Notes under the pieces: model-generated | The model's database searches: none | Told to the model about the DNA's origin: nothing | The model's input: only the letters and a program-made list of their open reading frames with translations | DNA from: Podarcis vaucheri | Lineage: Eukaryota | DNA length: 64,000 nucleotides | Assembly (NCBI GenBank): GCA_965113315.1 | Contig: OZ220376.1 | Direction: 5' to 3' (one strand) | Made by a program: the position numbers and the translations under genes | Shown here: positions 5,620 to 22,312 of the stretch, piece by piece | Numbering within the stretch: position 1 is the stretch's first letter | Layout: each line of letters starts with the position of its first letter

Positions 5620-6384
5620 GTCCCAACCCACTGCTTGAAGACCTGTGCAGTGGGATATACTTCTGAGGAAGCAGGCATAGGATCATGCTTTAGACCTCTT
5701 TCAGCAGAAAGAAATAGTGGTTGTATGGTATTGAAAGGCTAACGGATCGGTTTATTGCATCAGTTTTTGTGTTTTGGAGTCACACACCCAGGGTGAAGTA
5801 AAGCCTTCATGCATGCCGTGAAGCGGACTTCAATCTTATGATCAAATTATCTTTCTGTTTTGTTTTGAAACTTTCCTTTTGCTTGAAAATGTTCTCAGCT
5901 GTTACTGTTGCAGTGTGTATTTTGGTTTTTTTATGTTTTGTACACTACTTGCTTTTGTCTGAGCTTTTCTTTGCTCTTGTATGCCTGCCTGTTGTGTGTG
6001 CACACACCTTAAGAGATGGTTTCAGGAAAAGGGGGCAAAGGCTTCAGCTGTGGGGCTGCCCCCTTTGAGAAGTCTGGTGCTGGCCATAAGCCTGCTGTAC
6101 TTATTGAAGAGCAAGAGTTAGCCAGCCACTTTTAACATTTTTGATTAAAAGAGTAAATACACACACACACATATCTGGAAAAAAAATATTCAGAACATGA
6201 AATGTTCAAAATTAGCCAGGCACCCTGTGCATTTTGTGACTGGCATGGGTCCAATTGAGACCATGTGAGATCTCTGGATTTAGTGGCTGGGTTGGCAACT
6301 GACATCTCCACCTGGCTGGCCCCTCCAGCTTTCTTAAGCAGGTAAGCAGAAGAGCCTGCGTACTGCATGTATATTACACCTTTT

Positions 6385-6550
6385 CCTCCAAGGAGTATAT
6401 AGTTCACCCTCCCCTTCACACTTAATGCTTACAATGACCATGTTAGGTAAATTAAGAGACTGCGATTGGCCCAAGGTTACCCAGTGAGCTTTATGGGTAG
6501 GGATTTGAACCCTGATCTCCCAGGTGCTGGTCCAACACTCTAACCATGAC
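6385..6550 (-). mobile_element. MIR/Squam3-like core SINE fragment
   Basis: GGCCCAAGGTTACCCAGTGAGC...GGGATTTGAACCC is the reverse complement of a tRNA B box plus the core region. Confidence 0.6.
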
Positions 6551-6751
6551 CTTGGCTTCCTAGAGCACTTCTGCTATGGGGCAGCTATATAAATTAAGCA
6601 GGTAAATAAATATGGGAGAAACAAAATGTCACTTAGAGAAGGATCTGTGATATTTTCCTTGAAGCTTGCATTTGTTTTATTCAGGCTTGTTTTATTTGCA
6701 GTTTTAATGTATTGTCAACCGCTTTGAGATTTTTTTCTTTAAAGTCTAAAG

Positions 6752-6887
6752 CAGGCATAGGCAAACTCGGCCCTCCAGATGTTTTGGGACTACAACTCCC
6801 ATCATCCCTAGCTAACAGGACCAGTGATCAGGGATGATGGGAATTGTAGTCTCAAAACATCTGGGGGGCTGAGTTTGCCTTTGCCTG
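6752..6887. mobile_element. Palindromic hAT (Charlie-like) MITE
   Basis: Near-perfect 136-bp hairpin CAGGCATAGGCAAACTC...GAGTTTGCCTTTGCCTG; perfect 8-bp TSD GTCTAAAG. Confidence 0.93.
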
Positions 6888-9800
6888 GTCTAAAGTGATA
6901 TTGAAATGAAATTTATAAAATAAGGCTCATTGAAGAAGAATAAAAAGTGCCTAGACATTCCGTTGTGGCAACTGTAACCTAGGTTTAAGGCGCCATTTGG
7001 CAATTAACTTACATATCTGAGTTTCTAACGCTGAGAACATGTGAACCATAATTATGTAGCCCAGCCAGGGCAACAAGCCCCATCCTATCTGATGGATGGC
7101 CCTGTTGGCTGTGACCAGTAATAGGCCTGAGATCTCCACTGCTTGGTCAGATACAGGAATGTCCACCATCTAATCCACAGTGTTATTCTGCTGAGTTTGG
7201 GGTTGGGTATATTGCAGAAGGCCATCCCTGACCATTGGCCATGTTGGTTAAGCCTGAGGAAGTTGGGTGCCCAGCAGTGCCAGGAGGCCCACAGGGTCCT
7301 CACCTCTGGGCTGAAGACTGCTAAGGATGTGCTCTGGTGAGGGGAGCTCAGGAATCTTAACAGCAAAAACGCCTGTTGAAGGGCAAGCCATATGCATATG
7401 CACACCCACAAGCAAAGAGGAGCTGTGAGATTCACCACTGATGGAATGTCATGGCTGCTTTTGAAGTGTCAGTACAATTCCATAATGAGTATCATCAGCC
7501 AGATAACATCCCATAGATATGTTCCGTTTGATCTATTTCTGGAGCGTGCAGAATTGGGAAGAAAAATGAGGGAGATGCTTAATAATTTTGTGGCAAAAGC
7601 TAAGACTCCACCAAATTGTTGTGGAGACCGCTCCCAGCTCAAGGGATGTATTTTCTCCCCTTCTCACGCTGATATCACACAAGCTTTGTTCTGTGGGCTG
7701 CCCTCTCTGAAAAAGGAAACAATTTGTTTCATTCAGACCTCGAAATGTTTCTGTGTATTCCATTTCCAACACACAGCTGGGTCTTTCTCTCCCAGTGAAT
7801 AGGGTGATCGTAGACGAGTCTGCTCATTGAGTTCAGTGGGATCTCCTTCCATATTGGTGGGTCACATTTAGGCTGCAATCCTATACGCTGTCATGTTCAC
7901 TTCGTAGAGTCTGGTATGGCTGCTTTGTAAAGTCCAGTCAAAGCTAAAGCTGAAACTGGTTCCAAATTTTATGTCTTAAACCCATAGGTGGTCAAAAATG
8001 AGCCATGTTTGCAAGCCACCAACAAAAGTGGCTTCACTCTGGCCATGACAGTGTGAACATGCTGGCTCCCAAGAATGTAGGAATGTTTTGTTCCTGGATT
8101 ATTTAGGAAAACTTTTTGTTGCAGAGCATGGTTCAGGAAGAGGAGACATCATAATCCAGGGTTTGGACAATGTGCTTAAACCAGTAGTGTTCATCTTTTT
8201 CACACCCAGGATCCACCTTATCCAAACATACATTTGGAGACCAATTTATTGATATTTTACCATATATTTGTACGGTAGGTTGTGACCCACCTTGGATCCA
8301 GCCATGACACAGTAATGGTTCCCAAACCACCAGCTGAAGATCAGTGTGCTAAGCCCGAACCTTGGTTGGAGTGGAGCAAAGTGGTTGCAGTCTCTTCCTT
8401 GGAAGCCATTGTGTTTGTGCAATGCTGCTAAACTATGGTTTGACCCAGTGCTATGTGTGAATGAGGCTGTTGTGGTTTGCTGCCAGAAATCAAACCATGG
8501 TTAGTCCGCTGGGCTGGGGCTGGTTCTGAACAAACCACAGTGTAGCGAAACAAACCCTTGCTTGGTATTGAGAGCTATAGTGTTTCAGCTAGGAGTTCAT
8601 ACCCATCCAACACATGAAGGGTATAATAGAAGCCCTATGACCTTGCTCTCTGACCAATTATAGGCATGTAAACAACTCCCCCTCCCATTTGTTGCCAATA
8701 ACAAGACCCCCACCCTCAAACACTTGAATGCACAGACTTTAAGAGCAGGACAAGCGAGTTTGTGCATTGTCCCCTCTACATGTTGGATGTATGCACAACC
8801 CTAATGCCTTCCTCCATGTTCATATTTAGTCTCCCCTTTAAGTCTACTTATATAACTCTAGCGGGTGGTGGGACTTCTGGAGCGCAGTGCCTTTCTAAAA
8901 CGGATATTGCTGTTTTTCTGAAAATTGCTTACTTTGTAAGATGGACTGTTCTATTTATCTGTATGCACCTGAGCATCCTTTATGTATCCCCCCCCCCCGC
9001 TGACTTCGTTAAGCTCCTTCTAAATTACATTGTTTTTATGGGGCTCAACACATTGCCTTGCTAAAGATGCTCATGCGGAAGGTAATTAGCATTGAATTTT
9101 GCAGTGTGATGGATTGTGGTGAAGCTTAATTGCGGCTTGTAGGTGCGTTGAGCTCTCTATACATATATTTATGCTTAGCTGTGTGATTTTTTTCTCTCTC
9201 TTTTGGAATTGCTACAAGCAGCTGAGTTTCTATTTTGATAACAACTCACTGCTTGGCCATTCCATAAAAGTGTGTGTTGCTGCTGTCATTTTTTAAAAGT
9301 GAAAACAACATTATGCAATATAACACAGGGTCACTGCTTCAGACAAGGGGTGGGGCACCTTCAGCCCTCGAAATGTTGGATTGCAGACCATGCTTGCCAA
9401 CCTTCACTGTGGCTTGTTGAAACCAGGCAGCTTCTTGGCCCATGGTCTGAAGTTGCCTTCCCCACCCCCCAAACAAACCATAGTTAAGATGAATCATACA
9501 AACCATAGTTAAGATTAATGGTTTTAAGTGGCATGACAAGCCACTCGCAGTAGCTCATTCTCATATGGTTTGATGTGACATCTAAACAGTGCCAATGCTA
9601 TTTCACTACTTTTGAGTTATTTTTATCTGCTTCTTCCTTGTAGCCATTATGCAGAACCAAGTCAGAACTTACTAATTTCCCATACCTTACATTATTTTTA
9701 ATGGAAGGTATGCCCATATCCATCCTTTTCTTTAGAATCTCTCAAGTTGATTCTACAAGCAATTTGTTCCGTTCTGCAACTGGTCTGCTAATCAGAGGTT

Positions 9801-10367
9801 GCAGTTTGAACTTATCACCCTTTGTCATCCTTTGTGGTGTTAGATTACCTTTGCTGTTGAGATTACAGATGTCCTTCTCCTTGTTTGAGGCTGTTTTTCA
9901 AAAGGTGGAAGGTCACCAAAAACTCCTCAGTATTAAAGGCTGAGAAAACTCTGTTCTTTTATCCTTTCTTTTACTGCATGTTTTTACAGCTTCTATCATC
10001 TTTGACTGTCTCTTCCAGTTTCTCTGGTGCTGCTTTAAATTGTGGCCAAACTGCTGTTCCTTCTATTATCTTAAGAAAAGGAAAAAGTGGTTCCTGCTTT
10101 TCTTCACAGCATTGAATCAACCTTTTTGCTGTTTGCTATTCTCTATCTCAGCTCAGACGTCTGATTCGAGCCATTGCTAAGGGAAACTTCACTATGGTTT
10201 GCAATCAGCTGGCAAACCAGAATTCGAAACTGTGGTTTGATGTTGCTGAACTTCTATGTGCCCTGCAGCTTTTGAAAGTTCAGAGTTAGGTCAGGGGGTG
10301 GGTATAGCGAAGGGGCAAAACTCTACCCACTATACCACACTGGCTCTCTGGGTAGCATCTCTCCAGG

Positions 10368-10415
10368 ATTGGACTAGATGACCCTCATGGTCCCTTCCAG
10401 TTCTGTGATTCTATG
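10368..10415 (+). mobile_element. CR1 3' terminal fragment
   Basis: TTGGACTAGATGACCCTC...GGTCCCTTCCAG...TTCTGTGATTCTATG, the CR1 3' hairpin and octamer tail. Confidence 0.75.
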
Positions 10416-10585
10416 CAAAGCATGCGCTCTTCCACCTAGTCACAACCAGCATAATGCAAAAATGGAATTGAACAAACAACAAAATCTAACATTTGATGCA
10501 GGGGCAGACCTGCTGGATTAGGGCAAGGGGGCCAATTTGCTGCAGCATCCTCTCTCCAGCCAGATTCCTCTGAGACATTGGAATA

Positions 10586-10827
10586 CAGTGGTACCTCAGG
10601 TTAAGAATTTAATTCGTTCTAGAGGTCTGTTCTTAACCTGAAACTATTCTTAACCTGAAGCACCACTTTAGCTAATGGGGCCTCCTGCTTCCACTGCGCT
10701 GCCGCCGCACGATTTCTGTTCTCATCCTGAAGCAAAGTTCTTAACCCGAGGTACTATTTCTGGGTTAGTGGAGTCTGTAACCTAAAGCGTATGTAACCTG
10801 ATGTGTATGTAACCCGAGGTACCACTG
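10586..10827 (+). mobile_element. Tigger-like MITE family A, copy 2
   Basis: CAGTGGTACCTC TIRs, TA TSD. Confidence 0.92.
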
Positions 10828-11570
10828 TATAGCTTACTGATCGCTGTTGACTCCACCCCCCAACCACCACCAAAATTGAGTTTTCAACCCTTCTTAGGTT
10901 AATCAGTGGTGTCCTCAAAAGCTTAAAACTATTTTTGGATAACTTGAGCAAATATTGCCAATCCTGTTGGCTCAAAGTAGCCCCTTGAAAGGAAGAATGG
11001 AGATAAAGTAAAAGGAATCCCACATGACAAGCTGAGCAGCCTTTGGGGTAAAACTGGAAGATTTAGATAAGCCGCCTCTTCTCTCTAAATGCCTTGCCGT
11101 CCGGGTGCCAAAGAGGTCATCCTGGAATTTTGGCTTGCCCAACATTTAATCATTGTCTTAAATATCTCCTTTATGGGCAGATGCCAAAGCCGGATTATTA
11201 CCACTCCCTAACCTTTGGGCAGTTTTGAGATATTTATGACTCCATTTTTTCCCCAGAAACTGAGGAAGCTGAAAAAGCTCGCGCTGCAAGTGTTTTGTTA
11301 CTTAAAACAAATCCGCCCAGGCAACAAAAAGCAGTTAGGATTGATGGCAAATTAGGAGAGGGCCGGGGAAACATTTTTTGACCAAGGGCCACATTTCCTT
11401 GGGGTTCCCCTTCTGAGGACTGCATGCCATTGGTGGGCAGAGCAGCAAAAGTAAATTTTGCTTTCGGGCAGTGGGCTGTCCTCTAGATTACACTCACAGG
11501 GTTGTTCAGAAGGGAATGCAACGCTTGGGCTGAAAAAGTTTCTTCACCCCTGGCTTACACCGATTCTGGC

Positions 11571-12030
11571 CTGACTGCATTGGCTGCCAAATAGCTTCTA
11601 GGCCCAAATAGCTTCATAGGCTGGTGTTTACCTATGAAGACTTATGTGGCTCAGGACTTCAATACCTGAAGGACCGCTTCTCCCCATATGAACTGACCCA
11701 GACCCTGTGCTTGTCATCCAAGGCTCTTCTCTTTGTCCCCACTCCCCGAGAAGTTCGCAGGGTGGCAGCACAAGGAGAGGCCTTTTCTGTGGTGGCTCCC
11801 CATCTGAGGAATGCTCTTCCCGGTGAGGCTCGCTTGGCACCATCATTACAGGTCTTTCAGCGCCAGGCAAAAACATTCCTCTGTACCCAGGCCTTTGGCA
11901 ATTAAGTAAACTCTGGCCTGTTAAAGGTGTGGAGGGGGGGACTGTTATTATAATTATTTTTATTACTATGCTTTGCTTTATGTCTTTATTATTATGCACC
12001 GTAAAATATGTTTTTAATGTTGCACACTGA
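11571..12030 (+). mobile_element. Older L2 LINE 3' fragment
   Basis: ORF 11624-11905 (YLKDRFSPY...AFSVVAPHLRNALP...KTFLCTQAF) matches the L2 ORF2 C-terminus; its tail resumes after the BovB insertion. Confidence 0.8.
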
Positions 12031-12043
12031 TAAAGGGCATTAT

Positions 12044-12565
12044 TGTTGTTGTTGTTGTTTAGTCGTTTAGTCGTGTCCGACTCTTCGTGACCCCATGGAC
12101 CAGAGCACGCCAGGCACTTCTGTCCTCCACTGCCTCCCGCAGTTTGATCAAACTCATGCTAGTAGCTTCAAGAACACCATCCAACCATCTCATTCTCTGT
12201 CGTCCCCTTCTCCTTGTGCCCTCCATCTTTCCCAACATCAGGGTCTTTTCCAGGGAGTCTTCTCTTCTCATGAGGTGGCCAAAGTATTGGAGCCTCAGCT
12301 TCACGATCTGTCCTTCCAGTGAGCACTCAGGGCTGATTTCCTTCAGAATGGAGAGGTTTGATCTTCTTGCAGTCCATGGGACTCTCAAGAGTCTCCTCCA
12401 GCACCATAATTCAAAAGCATCAATTCTTCGGCGATCAGCCATCTTTATGGTCCAGCTCTCACTTCCATACATCACTACTGGGAAAACCATGGCTTTTACT
12501 ATACGGACCTTTGTTGGCAAGGTGATGTCTCTGCTTTTTAAGATGTTGTTTAAAACTCCATGGAC
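12044..12565 (-). mobile_element. BovB (RTE) LINE, 5'-truncated 3' end
   Basis: ORF with KAMVFPVVMYGSESWT...YFGHLMRR...SRTRLND; (CAA)n tail; TSD AAAGGGCATTAT at 12032-12043 and 12566-12577. Confidence 0.95.
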
Positions 12566-12866
12566 AAAGGGCATTATATAAATTGAAATAATAATAATGA
12601 TGATGATGATGATGATGATGCCAGGGATGTGAACCTGGGACTGTCTGTATGACAAATCATACATCCTACCATCAAGCTAAGCTCCCTTCCCAAGTATGAG
12701 TGGAACATAGGAAGTTCCCAGGCCTGATGACACAAATAGAGCACATTCTTTGTGATAAACCCTGTGTTGTGGAACTACCTCTCCACAGAGGTACATCTGC
12801 CACCTTCAATATACTTCTTTTGGTGAATAATGAACATGCACCACTTAACCTTTACACCTGGGATGT

Positions 12867-13239
12867 GTGTTGGTGCTGACCTTTAAAGCCCTAAACGGCC
12901 TCGGTCCAGTATACCTGAAGGAGCGTCTCCACCTCCATCGTTCTACCCGGACACTGAGGTCCAGCACCGAGGGCCTTCTGGCGGTTCCCTCGCTGCGAGA
13001 AGCCAAGTTACAGGGAACCAGGCAGAGGGCCTTCTCGGCAGTGGCGCCCTCCCTGTGGAACGCCCTCCCACCAGATGTCAAAGAGAACAACTACTACCAG
13101 ACTTTTAGAAGACATCTGAAGGCAGCCCTGTTTAGGGAAGCTTTTAATGTTTGATGTATCACAGCATTTTAATATTCTTTTGGAAGCTGCCCAGAGTGGC
13201 TGGGGAAACCCAGCCAGATGGGTGGGGTATAAATAATAA

Positions 13240-13278
<39 letters not shown>

Positions 13279-13288
13279 TATTATTATT
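12867..13288 (+). mobile_element. Young L2 LINE 3' end with (TTA)n tail
   Basis: ORF LTFKALNGLGPVYLKERL...APSLWNALP...FREAFNV, 3'UTR and TTA microsatellite tail; sits inside an older L2 remnant. Confidence 0.9.
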
Positions 13289-13412
13289 TTCAGGACCCAC
13301 CCCTAACCCTGTGAGTGTAATTTGTTTTAGCTGTAATTCTGAATTTTAAATTGTTGCAACCTGCCCTGGGACTTGCTTGTGAAGTGTGTGTGATAAATAT
13401 TATCATTATGTA

Positions 13413-13628
13413 CAGTGGTACCTCAGGTTAATTCATTCCGGAGGTCCGTTCTTAACCTGAAACTGTTCTTAACCTGAAGCACCACTTTAGCTAATGGGGC
13501 CTCCCGCTGCTGCCGCACCACCGGAACACGATTTCTGTTCTCATCCTGAAGCAAAGTTCTTATCCCGAGGTACTATCTGGGTTAGTGGAGTCTGTAACCT
13601 GAAGCGTATGTGACCCAAGGTACCACTG
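13413..13628 (+). mobile_element. Tigger-like MITE family A, copy 3
   Basis: TIRs plus TA TSD. Confidence 0.9.
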
Positions 13629-13654
13629 TATATGTATGATATGTTAGGGAAGAG

Positions 13655-14290
13655 GTAATGCCTCTGGTGGGGGATGTTTCCTTCTCCTTCTGGGGCATTT
13701 TGCCCACCTTTAGTCCCCATCCTGCACTGAGCTCCTGTGGCTCCTAGAAGCTGTCAGCATGTGACAGCAGCCACAGCCCGGGAAACGGCTTCAACTGGCT
13801 GGCTAAACCAGGTGAGGGTAACTGGTGGGTCTCAAATCCTCAGTGAATTTGGGACTTCCCCAGCAAATGAAAACAGGTTCCAGTGAATTGAGTGGATGAG
13901 ACCAATAGTGGATCCAACCATCAAGAAAGCAGATTCTGCACATGCTGAGGAAGAAAGTGAGGGGCAGATGGGGCTGGACAACCAAGGAAGGTAACCCATC
14001 TAGGAGAAGGAAAACTCTGATCCTATTCCTCCACTGTCTTGCGAGATATCTTCGGGAGAAGATAAGGCTCAGGTGTAAACCCTACACAAATCTGGAGTCC
14101 CTAAGTCCCTCCTGCAGCCAAGCTGGTGCTGAATGTATTTTTCTGTTTTCCTTTGGACCACATCAGGGAAGTCTGAGAGGGGAGTCTTGTCATCTGGGCA
14201 ACCCAGGAACTCCATACACCATCTTGTACACTGTGGGAGGTCACTTAGGTGCTGCTTACGCAGCAGATTGACTTCAACCCCTGGAGACAC
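13655..14290 (+). mobile_element. RTE-clade 5'UTR-like / non-autonomous element with structured RNA head
   Basis: Contains ATCTAGGAGAAGGAAAACTCTGATCC...GTAAACCC, which I recall from RTE-related 5' regions, and nested hairpins at 13735-13776. No RT ORF. Boundaries are approximate. Confidence 0.55.
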
Positions 14291-14491
14291 ACCTCATTGT
14301 CTCTTGAGAGACAGTGAAAGGGAACTCACGGGTCATCTAGTCCAGCCCCTGCAATGCAGGAGGGCTTGTTGTTATGCTGCTGCTACTACAGCAACAATGG
14401 TATTGTGGCTGGAGGAAGGATCTGCACTTGGGAAAAATGACTGCAGCATTACTATATGGGATAAATGTTTACTCTTTCCCATTGGTGCCTG

Positions 14492-14494
<3 letters not shown>

Positions 14495-14530
<36 letters not shown>
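14495..14530. repeat. (CA)n microsatellite
   Basis: Directly visible. Confidence 0.95.
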
Positions 14531-14532
<2 letters not shown>

Positions 14533-14941
14533 TCTCCAACATGGTCATTGCCCCAGTGGCTAAGAAGGCAACAGACAGAGATCGTCATTGTGTTGGCACC
14601 CTGCTTAGCACTGCCACATCGATTCACTTTGGGAATGGGCCGGGGGCCGGAGGCAAAGAAAACCATCTTAATGGGCTCTGAATGAGCCCCAACCGCCAGC
14701 CATTGTTGGATGCCAAAAGGCTGCAATCCCTGAGTTATGGCAGTGCCTGCCGAATGCTGTGCTAGATCAGGGTCAGGAGGCAGCTTAGCATGACATCAAT
14801 CAAGAGCGGCAACACAGAGGGGGCCTGCTGAGGCTGGGGCGGCATTCCCAGGAAACGCGCAATGAGGGGAAGAGGGCGATTAAATGGTGTCTGTCTGCAG
14901 TGCTGGGCTTGGAGCTGCAGCTAGGGACAAAAAAAGGGACC

Positions 14942-14947
<6 letters not shown>

Positions 14948-14982
<35 letters not shown>
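14948..14982. repeat. (GT)n microsatellite
   Basis: Directly visible. Confidence 0.95.
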
Positions 14983-14984
<2 letters not shown>

Positions 14985-17475
14985 CTGACTCTACATGCTG
15001 AACCGTTAAGTAGCTGGTTTTGAGCATAGCGGAGATCTTCATTCCTTGGGCACTGCTAGCCCTCCCCCCAGAACCTCTCTATCTCCCTCTAATGCCTCTG
15101 CTCTTCTGCACTGCCTATCCCATATGCTTGGAACCATTTCCCAGAACCTGTGTGATGCCTCCAGGATTCTTCATGCTTTTAATGTGCACCAGATTTAACG
15201 TTAAGTGTGTGGTGCAGATCTGCTCTCTGTTTCCATCGACTTGCTGTTCACTTGTGAACTAGGGTCAAAAGCCTGTTTTCTGAGCAAACCCCGTGGTTTG
15301 ATTAAACCAAGAAGCATCACACGCAAGGCAAAGGGAGGTGGGGGAGGGAGCACGCAAGCGTTGGGTTCATATCCAGTTCTCCAAACCATGGCTGGGAGGG
15401 TCATCTGAATGCAGTCACAGCTAAAAATTATATTGGTATTTCAACAGTCCTCTCTGCACTCCTTTGCAGGCTTGTGTGGTGCAATTCAGATGTTGGACTT
15501 AATGTTCTCACCAGGACGGGAGGCTCTTTGGATGTTAATATGTATTGTTTCAAAAGGTGATGATCCAGCACTGTTGCATTTGAGAAACTTACTGCTCATT
15601 ATTTGGATTGTTACCCCAGACACCTGCCCAATGGCCTGGGGACGGTCCTTCTTTGCTTTAAAAGCTACATTTTGCTATTCATATTAAGGAAGCAGTGAGC
15701 TTTGGCCCATTGCATCGAAAATTTATCAGCTGTGACATTCCTTTTCCTGAGTTGCAATCTTCCCCCAAAACTGGGCAATGGGTTGCTTGAGATTTGACAT
15801 AAATAACCCTGGAGGTTATTTGGATATATGGCAAGGTCCCATATATCAATGGAGGACTATTCAGGGATTCTGAGTGACCTGGGATTTCCAGCACAAGATG
15901 TACAGAAATGAAGTTCTGAAGATCAAAAGTGGGCTTACAAGATCATTAACTAGGTGGTAGGGAAAGGCAGTAAGCCAATATTACCGCACTTGTCTTCTAG
16001 ATTTTCCTGATCTGTTTTCGTTTGAGTGATTGTTTTCACAACTTGTACACATACATGAACTCCTTGTTCATTTGCATTAGCCTTGACCAGACTTCCTACA
16101 ATATTTTGAAATCTAAAGGTCAGGGGTTTTTTGGGTGAGGGGCTGGGTAGTGTGATGATATATGCCACTTTTATCTCTTATCTCTAAGATAAATGCTCTG
16201 AGAGAAATGCAAAATAAAACCTCTAAGATAAATGCAATCTTAAGAGCAAATCAGTACAGTTACTGTTGCCAGTTATCAAAGGTCGAGTTCAGTTGATTGT
16301 GGTTGTGCTTATATACGCATTTGCTTCTTAATAAAATGCCTGTTCTAAATTACTGGACTGAATCAGAAATGTCATATAGAATACAACACAGTAAGGTGGG
16401 TTGATAAATAGATAGGCCAGGGATGGGGACATTGTTTGACCCTCTTAGATGTTGCTGGACTACAACTGTCATAATTCCTTACCATTTGGCCATGCTTTGC
16501 TACAGCTGATGGGTGCTGGAGTCCAATAACATCTAGAGGGCCCTTGCAGAAGGGCCATAGGTGAGTGGTAGAGCATCTTGCTTGCATGCAGAAGGTCCCA
16601 TGGCACTGTCCTTCTGCATTTCATGCCCTTATTAGTTGGCCACAAAACAGCCCTGTTGTCTCTCCACTTGCCTATCACCCTTTGCCTTAGGCCACGCCAC
16701 CAGCATGTACCACAGGGGCCACAGAAGTGGATTGTATAGAAATGGGTTGTCCAATTGATTTGATTTGAATACCTGCAGACAATTGGTTAACCGACTTGAT
16801 TACTTTTAGGGAAACTAATCAATTGCCTATTGATTGATTGATTCTTTTCTATTTTCTCTTTTTTCTGTGGAGGAGGTTACTCATATTTGGACAATTTGAG
16901 AACTAACCAGTAGGATTTTAAAAGGAGATGTCTAAGAAGAGAGAAAGGGTGGGCTTCAGTGGGATGGAAGGAAGGAGTGGAAAGGAAAACATGAACTTAG
17001 TAAATGTTTCCCCCCAAAATAAAATGACTACAAGGCTGACAGCATCATCATCAACAACAATGGGAAAATGTAGATTCAGATAAACCAAATTTGATAATAG
17101 TTTTGAGAAATTTGCTTCTGGCTAGTTCCAAAGTTTTGAAAGTGAAATTAAAACATTCAGAACCAATATAATAAATACTATGAATGATGCAGAAAGTGGA
17201 TTAGCAAATAGATTGACCTTGTTAAAAACAAAGGCTGATGGAGCATGAAAATAATAAGAAACAAACAAACATAACTAAGGCATTCAAACTATTGGAGCAA
17301 GACTTTAGCCAGCGAGAAGTAGACTTTGCATATGCCACAACTGAAGCAGTAGAAAATAAAGTCAGATAGCAGAATATTAGACACAGGGGCTTTAACAAGA
17401 ACCTCGGGGGGAATTATATAAAAGCTTCTCTCTCTTTCTCTTTGCTGAATGTAAGATAGGAGATGCTAGGTAGAA

Positions 17476-17528
17476 AGCCTAGCTGCTCAGAGTGGCTGGG
17501 GCAACTCTGTCAGGTGGGCAGGGTACAA

Positions 17529-17573
<45 letters not shown>
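17476..17573 (+). mobile_element. L2 3'-terminal fragment with (TTA)n tail inside the L1 relic
   Basis: CAGAGTGGCTGGGGCAAC...GGGTACAAAT(TAT)n. Confidence 0.8.
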
Positions 17574-17577
<4 letters not shown>

Positions 17578-18276
17578 CCACCACCACCATTAGTGATACA
17601 GGATCTAGGAATAAGAACATATGTACCCAGAAAGTGCCCTAGAGACATACTAATTCTGTTTATGAGAAGAAGAAAAACAACCTAAACAACCAGGAGCAAC
17701 CTAAAGTTGAAGAAAATGGAGAAGTGTTTATATTGACTGATCTCTGCCCAATAATATTCAAGAAAAGGAAAAAATGAACTTTTGAGCAGTTTTTATGATA
17801 AAGCACTGTTCTGCGATTGTATTGCACTGATCTGTTACTTTAAAAATTGAGGGAGGAATTACAGATAAAAAGTTAATTTATGACTATAAATGGGAATGGA
17901 ATGGCCTGAATAGGCCAATTCAAAGATGAGGCTTAAAGAAAATTATATTTTATGACAATCCAGATATTCTGTCTGTTCAAGAGACATATTTCAAAGAAAG
18001 ATAAACAATTCCTGAAATAATTTTTGAGGGAATTATTTACCATGCTGCTGCATAATAAAAAAGGGGGTGAGTTATGCTAGAGCTCAAGACTGCAGGCATA
18101 GATAATTGTTAATAAAAAATGGATTCAGAAGGCAGATTCTAGTTCCTAAAAATAAAGATGCAGGACAGAATCACATCAATCCATATTCCTTCTATTGGAT
18201 TTCCCCCCCCCCCCCCCCAAGGACATGATATATCAAACTGCACACCGGATATTAACCAGAAATTTCAGTGTGCCAG

Positions 18277-18620
18277 TGCAGCTCCTGGAATATAGCAGAT
18301 TGGTCCTCTAAACAAATTCTGGATTTTCTGAATCATTTTGACATTGTACTTTTACAAGAGGACTGACAAGTTGAATTCATAATTCTTAATAGGTGCCACT
18401 ACCTGGCAGCTATTCAGTCTGAGAAGGAAGGGATTGTTAGCATGCATTATTTTATTTTATTTTATTTTAGCTAAGGCCTATGATTTTTTGCAAACCTTTG
18501 GCAATTGCTGTACTAATTAGGCTCCCAGAAATCCTTCTGATGGTGGTCAATGGATACATATCACCCTGCTCTACCAGTCCCAACCATTATGATTAAAAGG
18601 ATTACAGAATGTGAATAAGT
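18277..18620 (+). mobile_element. Second LINE endonuclease (APE) N-terminal fragment, clade uncertain (RTE-X-like?)
   Basis: Translates CSSWNIADWSSKQILDFLNHFDIVLLQE*, i.e. the SWN and D...QE motifs of APE. Confidence 0.6.
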
Positions 18621-20136
18621 ATTTCATACAACAATGCATAAAGCCCCCAGAATAACATGTAAGGCAACAGAAAAGAGAAAAGAAGATGGTAGTCCTTTAC
18701 AAATATTAGTGGATGCTCCTCGACAACTTATAAAATTTCAAATGCTATTATCTAGTTTAGTGTCTCCAAAGGAACTATTATCAGAAGCATGGAACATGCT
18801 ATCAGGTATACAAAATGGCAGCCCTGAAGTTAAAACTTCAGTAGTCAGGATAAAAAGGTTTCAAATACTGTTCCCATGTTTCAGTACTGACAGAGACTGG
18901 TTCGTTACATATCGTGATGGTCACAAGACTTTACTGATGTTGTGGTAAAGGAAAACTTCTAGATGATGTGTGGTACTTGAATTCGCACAAATCACATGCA
19001 ACACACACACGAATTACCTATCATTTTTAGCTTAGAGTTGCAGCCAAGATCAAGAGGTATTTAGACACATTTGGCAGAATTACAAGATTATAATGATTTT
19101 CTGAATGATGATGATGATGATGGTTATAAATGATTGAATTACAAACCACAATTAGAAATGAACCCCATCAAGGTATACACTTGTGCAGTGGGTCTTTCTC
19201 CCCCTCTCTTCCCCCTACATGCCCCCTAAATCTGGGGGTTACTCTACAAAACAGATTTCGGGTAGAGGGAGGAACGGGGGGAAAGTCCCATTTTGCAAGC
19301 ACGTACCCCTGTGAAGACAGGATGATTACCTAGTGTTACATTGGATGCAAGCCTATCTATTTTGTTGAAATGTTCCAAAGGGAGGTGATAGGATCTGTTG
19401 AAGTGGATTCTGGTCCAGGAAAGCTTATGCTGAAGTGAATCTGTTAATCCTCGAAGCTTCTTGTAACCCTGTCTCTCTCTTTTGGTGTATCTGCTGCAAC
19501 AGGCTAAGACGGCTTCTACGCTGCAAGATTTACTAATGTAATCTTTGCTTGCCAGATTCTCCGTTGGCTAATTCACAGGTTAGGAGTGCTGCTGCAGCCA
19601 GCCTTAAGTGGAGCCCTTTGTACATCTCTGGTCAGTTCCATCTTCTCCCCCACCAGCCCAGTGCGAGCTGTACAGTTGTACTTAAAGACAACCGAGCTGA
19701 TGCAAGTTATTTATGCAGTAATGATCTTGGAAGCGGGCATTTATCATCCTTTTCTAAACACACGACACACGGCTCTGCCCTCAAGGAATACAGTTTAAAA
19801 ACCAATATAAACATAGCTCTAGTCTGCCTGATTCCATTAGTCTTCGCTGTGCTGAGTGCATATTCAAGGACTCTGAAAGAAATGGCAGCGGTGGAAGGGA
19901 GTTAAAGAAACCATTCTTCATTTTGTAGTTACACTTGGGTGTAAACAGCACATTCGTTCAGCGAAATTGGGCGGCGTTTCTTTCTGTGTCTGTTGCGAAT
20001 AATTTTTGTATTAAAAAAACCTCAAAAAGGCTGCCTAGATGGAAAGGTTGTCTAGAATTCACACCCTTTCCCCATAATCTTGGGTGATGGCAAGGGGGTG
20101 TTGACTCACTGCCTTTCAGCAGTAAGTAGGGGGGCT

Positions 20137-20318
20137 CAGGGGTGCCAAATATTGAAATATTGGGGGGAGGCAGGTAAGCCCCGCCCTACATAATCAATCA
20201 CAAGACAACACACACACACCATTTGAACACACCGTTAACTTTGGGGAGGGGCAGGCCCCTTGAATATATTATTGGGGGAAGGCTGAAGGGACCTTGGCCC
20301 TAGGAGTTGGCTCCTGGG
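20137..20318. mobile_element. hAT MITE
   Basis: CAGGGGTGCCAA...TTGGCTCCTG termini; 8-bp TSD GGGGGGCT at 20129-20136 and 20319-20326. Confidence 0.8.
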
Positions 20319-20414
20319 GGGGGGCTACTTTTAAAGCTACAGTATATCATTAAAGACTTTAAATAATCATGGCTTTCGCCCAAGAATCTTGGGGACTATA
20401 GTTTGCTAAGGTTA

Positions 20415-20766
20415 AAAGGTAAAGGGACCCCTGACCAATTAGGTCCAGTTGTGACTGACTCTGGGGTTGCGGCGCTCATCTCGCTTTATTGGCCGAGGGA
20501 GCCGGTGTACAGCTTCCGGGTCATGTGGCCAGCATGACAAAGCTGCTTCTGGCGAACCAGAGCAGTGCACAGAAACACTGTTTACCTTCCTGCCAGAGCA
20601 GTACCTATTTATCTACTTGCACTTTGACATGCTTTCGAACTGCTAGGTTGGCAGGAGCTGGGACTGAGCAACGGGAGCTCACTCCGTTGTGGGGATTTGA
20701 ACCACCAACCTTCTGATCAGCAAGCCCCAGGCTCTGTGGTTTAGCCCACAGCACTACCCACATCCC
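20415..20766 (-). mobile_element. Sauria SINE
   Basis: Full-length reverse copy; TSD TAAGGTTA at 20407-20414 and 20767-20774. Confidence 0.95.
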
Positions 20767-20896
20767 TAAGGTTAGGAGGCTGCAAAGTGTTAGGAGGCCC
20801 CTGTTCCCCTAACAGTGCCAAAGTTCCCTTGTGGAGAGGGATCAATTTTTAAATCACTCCTGGAATTGTAGTCCTGGGAGGGAACTTGGGGTGTCC

Positions 20897-21230
20897 TGGC
20901 GCTGTGGTCTAAACCACAAAGCCTAGGGCTTTCTGATCAGAAGGTCGGCGCTTCAAATTCCCACGATGGGGTCAGCTCCCATTGTTCGGTCCCAGCTCCT
21001 GCCCACCTAGCAGTTCGAAAGCATGTCAAGTGCAAGTAGATAAATTATGTACAGCTCTGGCGGGAAGGTAAATGGCGTTTCTGTGCGCTGTTCTGGTTCG
21101 TCAGAAGCGGCTTAGTCATGCTGGCCACGTGACTGTACGCCGGCTCCCTCAGCCAATAAAGTGAGATGAACGCCGCAACTCCAGAGTCGTCCGCGACTGA
21201 ACCTAATGGTCAGGGGTACCTTTACCTTTA
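20897..21230 (+). mobile_element. Sauria SINE (slightly 5'-clipped)
   Basis: TGGCGCTGTGGTCTAAACC head to TACCTTTACCTTTA tail. Confidence 0.93.
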
Positions 21231-21414
21231 ATAACTCTAAGTAAACTCTCCCCTTCAGTGGTTTCTGTCAACTGTATTCAGAAGCATTACTGTCTTTGAC
21301 TGTGGAAGAAGCCTTATCCTCTGTGAATTTGTCTAACCCTCTTTCAAACCCATACAAGTTGGGGAGCATCACCACCTCGAAAGGAACAGGCAATGAGGAA
21401 AGGACCTTAGTTCA

Positions 21415-21435
21415 GTGTGTGTGTGTGTGTGTGTG

Positions 21436-21466
<31 letters not shown>
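21415..21466. repeat. (GT)11-GCGCGC-(AC)12 self-complementary microsatellite
   Basis: Directly visible. Confidence 0.95.
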
Positions 21467-21467
<1 letters not shown>

Positions 21468-22312
21468 GGTATTTTAGGTCTCTTTCATTTGGTTGGCCAC
21501 CTAATTTGTTTTTCCTTGGTCTCGGCACTCCCATGTCATCCTGGACACCACGAGTTAACTTTAGGGCTTAGAAGAATCTGTCTGCATTGGGCCTCCCTTG
21601 AAGGCCACATGAGAGGGGTTTGCTAAGTCTGGCTGGTGTATTAATGGCTTCTTTCATAAGAAGTGTAAAGACTGGCTTCATGTCAAGTTTGGACAGGCAC
21701 TCTGCCCTGCCATTGCACACAGAACGGTGGTTCTTCAGAGAGCCACGGAGCCAGATGCAATGCGCTTTCTGTCTTTTGAGAAAAGCAGCCATTTCAGAGT
21801 GGTCTGCCCCTGACAAGGAGCCGATTGTGTGGCAGGGAGTCTCCTACGTCAGCCAAGGTCATCTGCGACTGAATCACAGTTGCTCCGCACTTCTTCAGAA
21901 GCAACTGTCTTAATATGCTGCGTTCCCTCAGCATGGAAGGAAGCAATTTGTAGTAGACTGCTTATAAAGTCATTTCCTTTCTCGGGAAGGGTTTTGACTA
22001 TACTGCTGGAGGTTTTCATGGGGAAAAAGCGGTGGCAAGCTCAGCTACGTCATGTGCCCACAGGAAGCGGGGAAAGGAGGAAGAAAGGAGGTTCCATAAG
22101 TCTCTACCCCTATTGTATCCATGCAAGAACCAAAAAGCAGTCAGCAGCTACAGTCACTTCATATGTTAAAAGCACTGTGATGCCACGTGAAACACTCATG
22201 GTTTCACCCAAAGAATTCTGAGAGCTGTAGTTTGTTAATGGTGCTGCGAGTTGTTAGGAGACCTCTAGTTCTCCCACTGAGTTACAGTGGTTTGACAGTC
22301 AACCCCTCTTCC

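Follow-up and report, generated by a model that had tools for sequence, protein, structure and literature searches.

A decayed lizard copy of a short RTE-derived element whose family head is predicted to fold as an HDV-like ribozyme bearing an additional L3 hairpin

What stands at the head of a short, ORF-less repeat in a 64,000-nucleotide stretch of Podarcis vaucheri DNA (contig OZ220376.1; hereafter the window)? The original prediction placed there, at 13720-13830, a variant of the twister ribozyme at the start of an RTE-like element. The letters on which it relied are all in place: the stem CTGTGGCT (13735-42) / AGCCACAG (13769-76), the hairpin at 13750-68, CCCGGG, the small CGGC/GCTG stem (13786-89 / 13798-801) and CTAAACCAGGTGAGGGT. 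Our reading of them is a different one: the locus is probably a decayed copy of the 5' head of a short non-autonomous RTE retrotransposon, and the sequence of the family to which it belongs accommodates every part of an HDV-like ribozyme, loop L3 being enlarged by a hairpin, with cutting predicted before the first base.

The repeat is abundant. With window positions 13660-13900 as the query, 3035 first-look candidates were found in the lizard's own genome, and the 40 that were scored, window copy excluded, show 80-85% identity. Alignment of 30 loci defines an ORF-less element of ~750 bp that begins with GGGGTGT and ends with a CAA-type tail; a 32-nt motif from its 3' end has 369 exact matches in the genome. 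Target-site duplications occur in the family, as does a short tandem 3' tail.

Both halves of the element lead to the same kind of LINE. The last ~65 nt share 75-92% identity with 5'-truncated LINE copies, the ORF remnants of which match APE+RT proteins of ~1047 aa, while the 5' part is found joined to RT remnants in L145/L155 and to the APE region in L252, L259 and L238. Since the 5' part and the 3' end, common to a single-ORF APE+RT LINE, both occur in copies of it, the element is, judged from sequence comparison, a bipartite non-autonomous RTE derivative: its 5' region reaches approximately family position 686 and is followed by the ~65-nt 3' end common to RTE LINE copies. Assignment to the RTE clade rests on the domain layout, on a C-terminal motif, which we take to be a mark of that clade, and on one protein homolog named after F52C9.6, presumably the C. 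elegans RTE-1 protein. A Vingi/Ingi origin was considered and rejected, the ORF linked to the element being of RTE type.

Several features of this repeat landscape are recorded here in their own right. At family positions ~650-710 (window 14225-14285) a long predicted helix joins the two halves, with CAGC common at the junction, and a longer subfamily (L084, L086, L061) retains extra sequence on either side of the 5'/3' junction. Two further RTE-type families are present in the genome (L381-L384 and L244-L266), one of them young, with open frames of 1036 aa; their 5' heads differ and begin with a short GC-rich hairpin-like stretch.

To describe the head of the element we used a family model, namely the majority sequence of 49 copies with CpG sites restored (L031, L055, L082 and L155 were removed as duplicates). 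Its helices are arranged in HDV-type order: P1, a ~95-nt J1/2, P2, P3 (GGC), L3, P3 (GCC), P1 (ACACCCC), GG, P4, J4/2 (GCTAA) and P2. Family bases 1-7, GGGGTGT, are complementary to ACACCCC and give P1 with 7/7 pairs, counted from the predicted cleavage-site G (G1). P2 comprises 11 pairs stacked on a 3-bp P3, P1.1 two pairs between the CC of L3 and the GG that follows P1, and P4 four base pairs. The equivalents of U20, G25, C75 and A77/A78 are intact in the model; among individual copies, the catalytic-C equivalent in GCTAA is C in 45/49 and the G25 equivalent is kept in 45/47. The roles of C75 and of U20-G25 in HDV-like cleavage are described in PMC13635239. The order and complementarity of these elements make it very probable that the family head has an HDV-like nested double pseudoknot fold. 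In its more general claim, a ribozyme-type structure heading an ORF-less RTE-derived element, the original prediction was right.

In the window the element is in poor condition. The copy occupies 13633..14309 on the plus strand and aligns to family positions 5-729 of 749; it lacks the first ~4 nt of the family as well as the 3' CAA-type tail, and no target-site duplication was found around it. An unrelated inverted-end element of ~216 bp with a TA duplication (13413..13628), which we take to be of MITE type, is inserted at its 5' end, and ends similar to those of this insertion recur at several sites of the window. The predicted structure begins not at 13720 but ~90 nt further upstream, at ~13629. 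Its P1 5' strand or strands (13629..13644) are decayed and offer only 3/7 or 4/7 pairs. They are followed, all on the plus strand, by the J1/2 peripheral domain (13645..13731), for which a stable structure is predicted (family model, ~95 nt: -43.9 kcal/mol), the P2 5' strand (13732..13738), with a 4-nt deletion and 7/11 pairs, the P3 5' strand GGC (13739..13741), L3 of 28 nt (13742..13769), the P3 3' strand GCC (13770..13772), the P1 3' strand (13773..13779; ACACCCC in the family, C>G at 13776 in this copy), the GG of P1.1 (13780..13781), the 4-bp P4 hairpin (13786..13801), J4/2 GCTAA (13802..13806), with C13803 in the place of C75, and the P2 3' strand (13807..13818), from which a single C is bulged. 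Within L3, the U20 equivalent is at 13742, the CC of P1.1 at 13743-44, the G25 equivalent at 13747 and the inserted hairpin at 13750-68. The remaining RTE 5' region and the ~65-nt 3' end fill 13819..14309, with a predicted helix across their junction.

As both P1 (3/7 or 4/7) and P2 (7/11) are broken, the window copy, with its decayed 5' head, is likely inactive; a decayed copy was indeed one of the options originally offered. A strict intactness rule is passed by 2/49 and 8/80 family copies, the set of 80 having been chosen on part of the core; L308, L331 and L346 are examples of intact copies. As to the intronic location supposed in the original prediction, none of the 122 window ORFs of at least 88 aa matched Pfam. 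Three raw RNA runs, 6-12% of each sampled, contain almost no coverage of unique sequence over 6001-22000, and with this near-zero coverage no splice joints over the same interval were found among the rows listed. It is a fossil copy, and nothing points to a function of its own.

The decay also accounts for how the two hairpins flagged in the window should be read. The letters of the 8-bp stem are there, but it is not a family helix and only its central GGC/GCC, that is, P3, is shared: the outer C-G pair depends on G13776, a position at which 33/47 family copies have C and 2/47 have G, and the TGT/ACA pairs on either side are in competition with P2 and P1, from whose strands they are taken. The 7-bp hairpin is real in the window copy, but its seventh pair is a product of CpG decay, 25 of 49 copies having C at this site and 24 having T; the ancestral L3 hairpin likely had 6 bp and a 7-nt loop holding the palindrome GCAUGC.

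Support from outside the lizard comes from a metagenome set, in which 80 of 114 loci were fetched by the APE N-terminus, the RNA motif not being used. A covariance model built from 24 lizard copies and run on these 80 loci and the window matched the window copy, L158 (E 8e-12) and L193 (E 2e-8) only, these E-values being rough. Covariation, which the original prediction had named as a check, comes out in favour of a conserved structure: relative to the lizard model, the two distant homologs carry compensatory changes at four pairs (two in P4 and a single one in each of P1 and P2; six cells). The P1 change is found in L193, and one P2 pair is C-G, G-C and A-U across the three lineages. By hand count 0/27 pairs are broken in L158 and L193, P2 differing in bulge and length only. 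A formal count, which points the same way, gives nine pairs changed on both sides; it is drawn from three rows, and L193 is out of register by one base in P2, which inflates the figure. We prefer the hand count of four, itself from a small sample of two homologs. P1.1 is without covariation, because its CC/GG is invariant in both. Rfam HDV-like models match no lizard copy, nor L158 or L193, and since the latter two are missed as well we regard these models as insensitive here.

A descriptor for HDV-like ribozymes with a short L3 matched 8/80 of the upstream regions; the reverse complements gave 1/80, and five Markov controls gave 1-3. Two of the eight matches are probably noise, and six appear genuine: L158, L165, L193, L228 and the nearly identical pair L198 and L227. 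L165 has a weak match to Rfam drz-agam-1 (E 0.17, below cut-off). The short-L3 HDV-like folds of L165 (158-418), L198, L227 and L228 lie upstream of RTE-type ORFs and are unrelated in sequence to the lizard head. Pattern scans yielded 12 loci in genome contigs, judged to be chance from the expected number and from their prokaryotic titles, and one unrelated locus in viral contigs.

The feature that sets the lizard family apart is L3. The loop is 28 nt long in this genome, including the 6-bp hairpin, versus 7 nt in L158 and L193, and exact matching across the genome returned 279 long forms and 0 short ones; 87 of the 100 long-L3 matches listed, out of 279, have an identical 22-nt spacer. Autonomous (L252, L259, L145) and non-autonomous copies alike have the hairpin. 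It is located 3' of the G25 equivalent, near the position of HDV U27, a base that is extruded and dispensable. No relative with the insert was found among the 80 metagenome loci (positive control: 15/80 lizard copies), and the hairpin itself is therefore without covariation support. L3 is 7 nt in CPEB3 and 8 nt in genomic HDV, and CPEB3 ribozymes dimerise in crystals via a palindromic L3 (passages of bioRxiv 2022.09.22.508989); L3 forms the HDV-like active site (passages of PMC4908430). Since L3 forms the active site and has only 7-8 nt in CPEB3 and HDV, a 21-nt insert could kill activity, and because a loop of 28 nt falls outside the short-L3 (7-8 nt) definition we treat the family as an HDV-like variant. 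In addition, a helix that competes with the pseudoknot gains stability from the insert and comes close to P1 (-10.1 kcal/mol versus -11.8 for P1), and this competing helix is the one picked in the minimum-energy fold of the family model. We have found no paper on such an L3 hairpin or on this family, in a literature that did not extend to Ruminski 2011 or to the supplements of Ruminski 2011 and Kojima 2018, which may list the family; the available parts of PMC13708176 and PMC9901934 contain nothing on either.

One amplified set of copies deserves a separate remark. In a single region (C29:71.97-76.36 Mb, L280-L299) one copy of the element has apparently been amplified at least 41 times; at L282, the sole translated locus of this set, the opposite strand carries a C2H2 zinc-finger frame, and reads matching the amplified copies are abundant in the RNA runs. 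A transcribed variant suspected of having a short L3 was rejected: it is a long-L3 copy, amplified in a gene cluster.

If the family RNA cuts itself before G1, the 5' ends of its copies should bear the mark. For this we used 80 of the 100 copies listed (of 279) with an exact match to the core flanks; most copies with odd spacer lengths were omitted, plus some previously collected. In this set chosen on the core, the 5' end falls at G1 in 19 copies and within positions 1-11 in 57. The single 5' site for which the original prediction proposed to look is seen in part, as a cluster at G1 with a tail from position 1 to 11. Letters upstream of G1 are not conserved, except for T at -1 in 16/24, and as the query itself began at G1 it is this absence of upstream conservation that marks the end. 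Target-site duplications were scored in 10/23 copies with both ends, compared with 7/111 in the control; in the four scored copies that start at positions 1-2, the duplication ends at 0, +1, -1 and -2 relative to G1. In the first copy set a duplication was scored in 11/36 copies; its end ranges between -25 and +22 and lies at -1 or +1 in four. G1-type cleavage at the element 5' end has been reported for RTE, R4 and Drosophila R2 (passages of PMC3774820). The clustering fits cleavage at G1; an internal promoter would look similar. GGGGTGT is present in tandem at family positions 1-7 and 10-16, and either repeat could form P1, with 9 nt between the two predicted cut sites. Cutting at the second GGGGTGT as well is possible; ordinary 5' truncation would leave similar ends. 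The family RNA reads show no pile-up of read starts.

Sequence divergence among copies counts against a function. Purifying selection on the core was suggested at first (0.082 vs 0.138), and the signal was gone with a gap-masked alignment, in which the core (0.088) and the flanks (0.092) show neutral decay (30/80 copies spanning positions 20-400). There is no subfamily structure among the copies of the 80-copy set.

Is the fold that of a twister after all? The class named by the original prediction has some appeal, given that the RTE element Perere-3 is headed by twisters and that the short words CCGG, an xUAAA word and GAGGG resemble the layout given in parts of PMC8501958, yet we consider it highly improbable. 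Rfam returned no match at gathering score in the window, and neither twister nor any other ribozyme in 13500-14100 at E up to 10; a twister descriptor, run without a positive control, had no match in the window and 0/80 among family copies. The defining features that were looked for are absent. No UA cleavage site precedes the P2-like strand, where CTCTC stands instead, and a twister L4 with its T1/T2 pseudoknot bases is missing between the P4 arms (layout from passages of PMC8501958). The canonical GUCCCAAGC loop, its absence already noted in the original prediction, does not occur between the CCGG arms, and 9-mers resembling it (<=2 mismatches) lie almost all downstream of GAGGG, outside L4. 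GAGGG is paired with CTCTC in P2, and the homologs covary in HDV-type pairs; the motif order taken for that of a twister is made of letters that fully fit the HDV-like fold, as the 3' half of its pseudoknot. Nor do we give more than the slightest credence to chance hairpins in a decayed repeat of no ribozyme ancestry. The flagged stretch, 13720-13830, does fold no better than shuffles (z = 0.07; 98/200 shuffles equal), and its stem is partly copy-specific, but five helices follow in HDV order from the first base of the element and distant homologs carry compensatory changes. Chance is thereby refuted for the family, while the 8-bp stem of the window copy is still partly accidental.

The alternative to be taken most seriously is that the family is a ribozyme relic, of HDV-like ancestry and inactivated by the L3 insertion, which spread via an internal promoter or read-through RNA and has its 5' ends set otherwise. 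L3 belongs to the catalytic core (passages of PMC4908430), the competing long hairpin wins the minimum-energy fold, no diverged relative with the insert was found among the 80 loci, and in L1Tc the internal promoter shares a 5' stretch with the ribozyme (passages of PMC3383444). Against this, the 27 pairs and the equivalents of U20, G25, C75 and A77/A78 have stayed intact in the family model, though much of the adjoining sequence is beyond blastn detection versus L158 (outside the core, only family positions 147-195 and 521-688 align). The insertion would need to be very late on that branch, and it is present in autonomous and non-autonomous copies alike. We hold a relic to be possible but rather unlikely, and lean towards the L3-hairpin form having been active in the master element. 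Distinctly more speculative, and in our view doubtful, is an active ribozyme with a functional fifth helix in L3, in which the GCAUGC-loop hairpin would gate cleavage, either by a switch between long hairpin and pseudoknot or by loop-loop dimerisation of element RNAs.

Were the L3-hairpin form active, a host read-through transcript would fold P1, P1.1 and P4 together with P2 and P3, and cleavage 5' of G1 would be carried out by C75 and a Mg2+ held at U20-G25. The L3 hairpin, being 3' of G25, would point away from the core, and the structured J1/2 and long P2 may speed up cleavage, as in drz-Agam-2-1. The RTE protein would then act in trans and reverse-transcribe the released RNA, beginning at the 3' tail that the two elements share. 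Should the 28-nt form cleave, peripheral domains would be tolerated in L3 as they are in J1/2 and P4, large retrotransposon families would escape descriptors that require a short L3, and insertions right beside the core would become available to engineers. L158 and L193 are natural short-L3 controls.

HDV-like ribozymes are known at the 5' ends of the non-LTR retrotransposons RTE, R2, R4, Ingi/L1Tc and baggins (passages of PMC5786205, PMC6765202, PMC3774820), and for RTEs in particular (also PMC4035085, in part). The family resembles these in its location at the element 5' end, the nested double pseudoknot, the cut predicted at P1 base 1, the catalytic C of J4/2 and the conserved G of L3. It differs in the 28-nt L3 with a hairpin, in the two tandem candidate P1 strands, and in that cutting is predicted only. 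The Perere-3 twister and its T-variant (PMC8501958, in part) share with the family a position upstream of an RTE ORF and a few similar short words, but have another topology, with the twister L4, T1/T2 pseudoknots and U-A site that the family lacks. In drz-Agam-2-1 J1/2 is likewise large and structured and P2 is lengthened to 11-12 bp, the arrangement by which it is activated; passages of its description mention no L3 insertion (PMC4908430), and lizard copies have no match to the Rfam drz-agam models. RTEs have been predicted to carry such ribozymes and to form bipartite elements, and WALLSI3 and Bov-A, bipartite RTE LINEs, are built as the lizard family is: a LINE 5' part and a 3' tail, no ORF, and the LINE 5' end retained (passages of PMC5786205).
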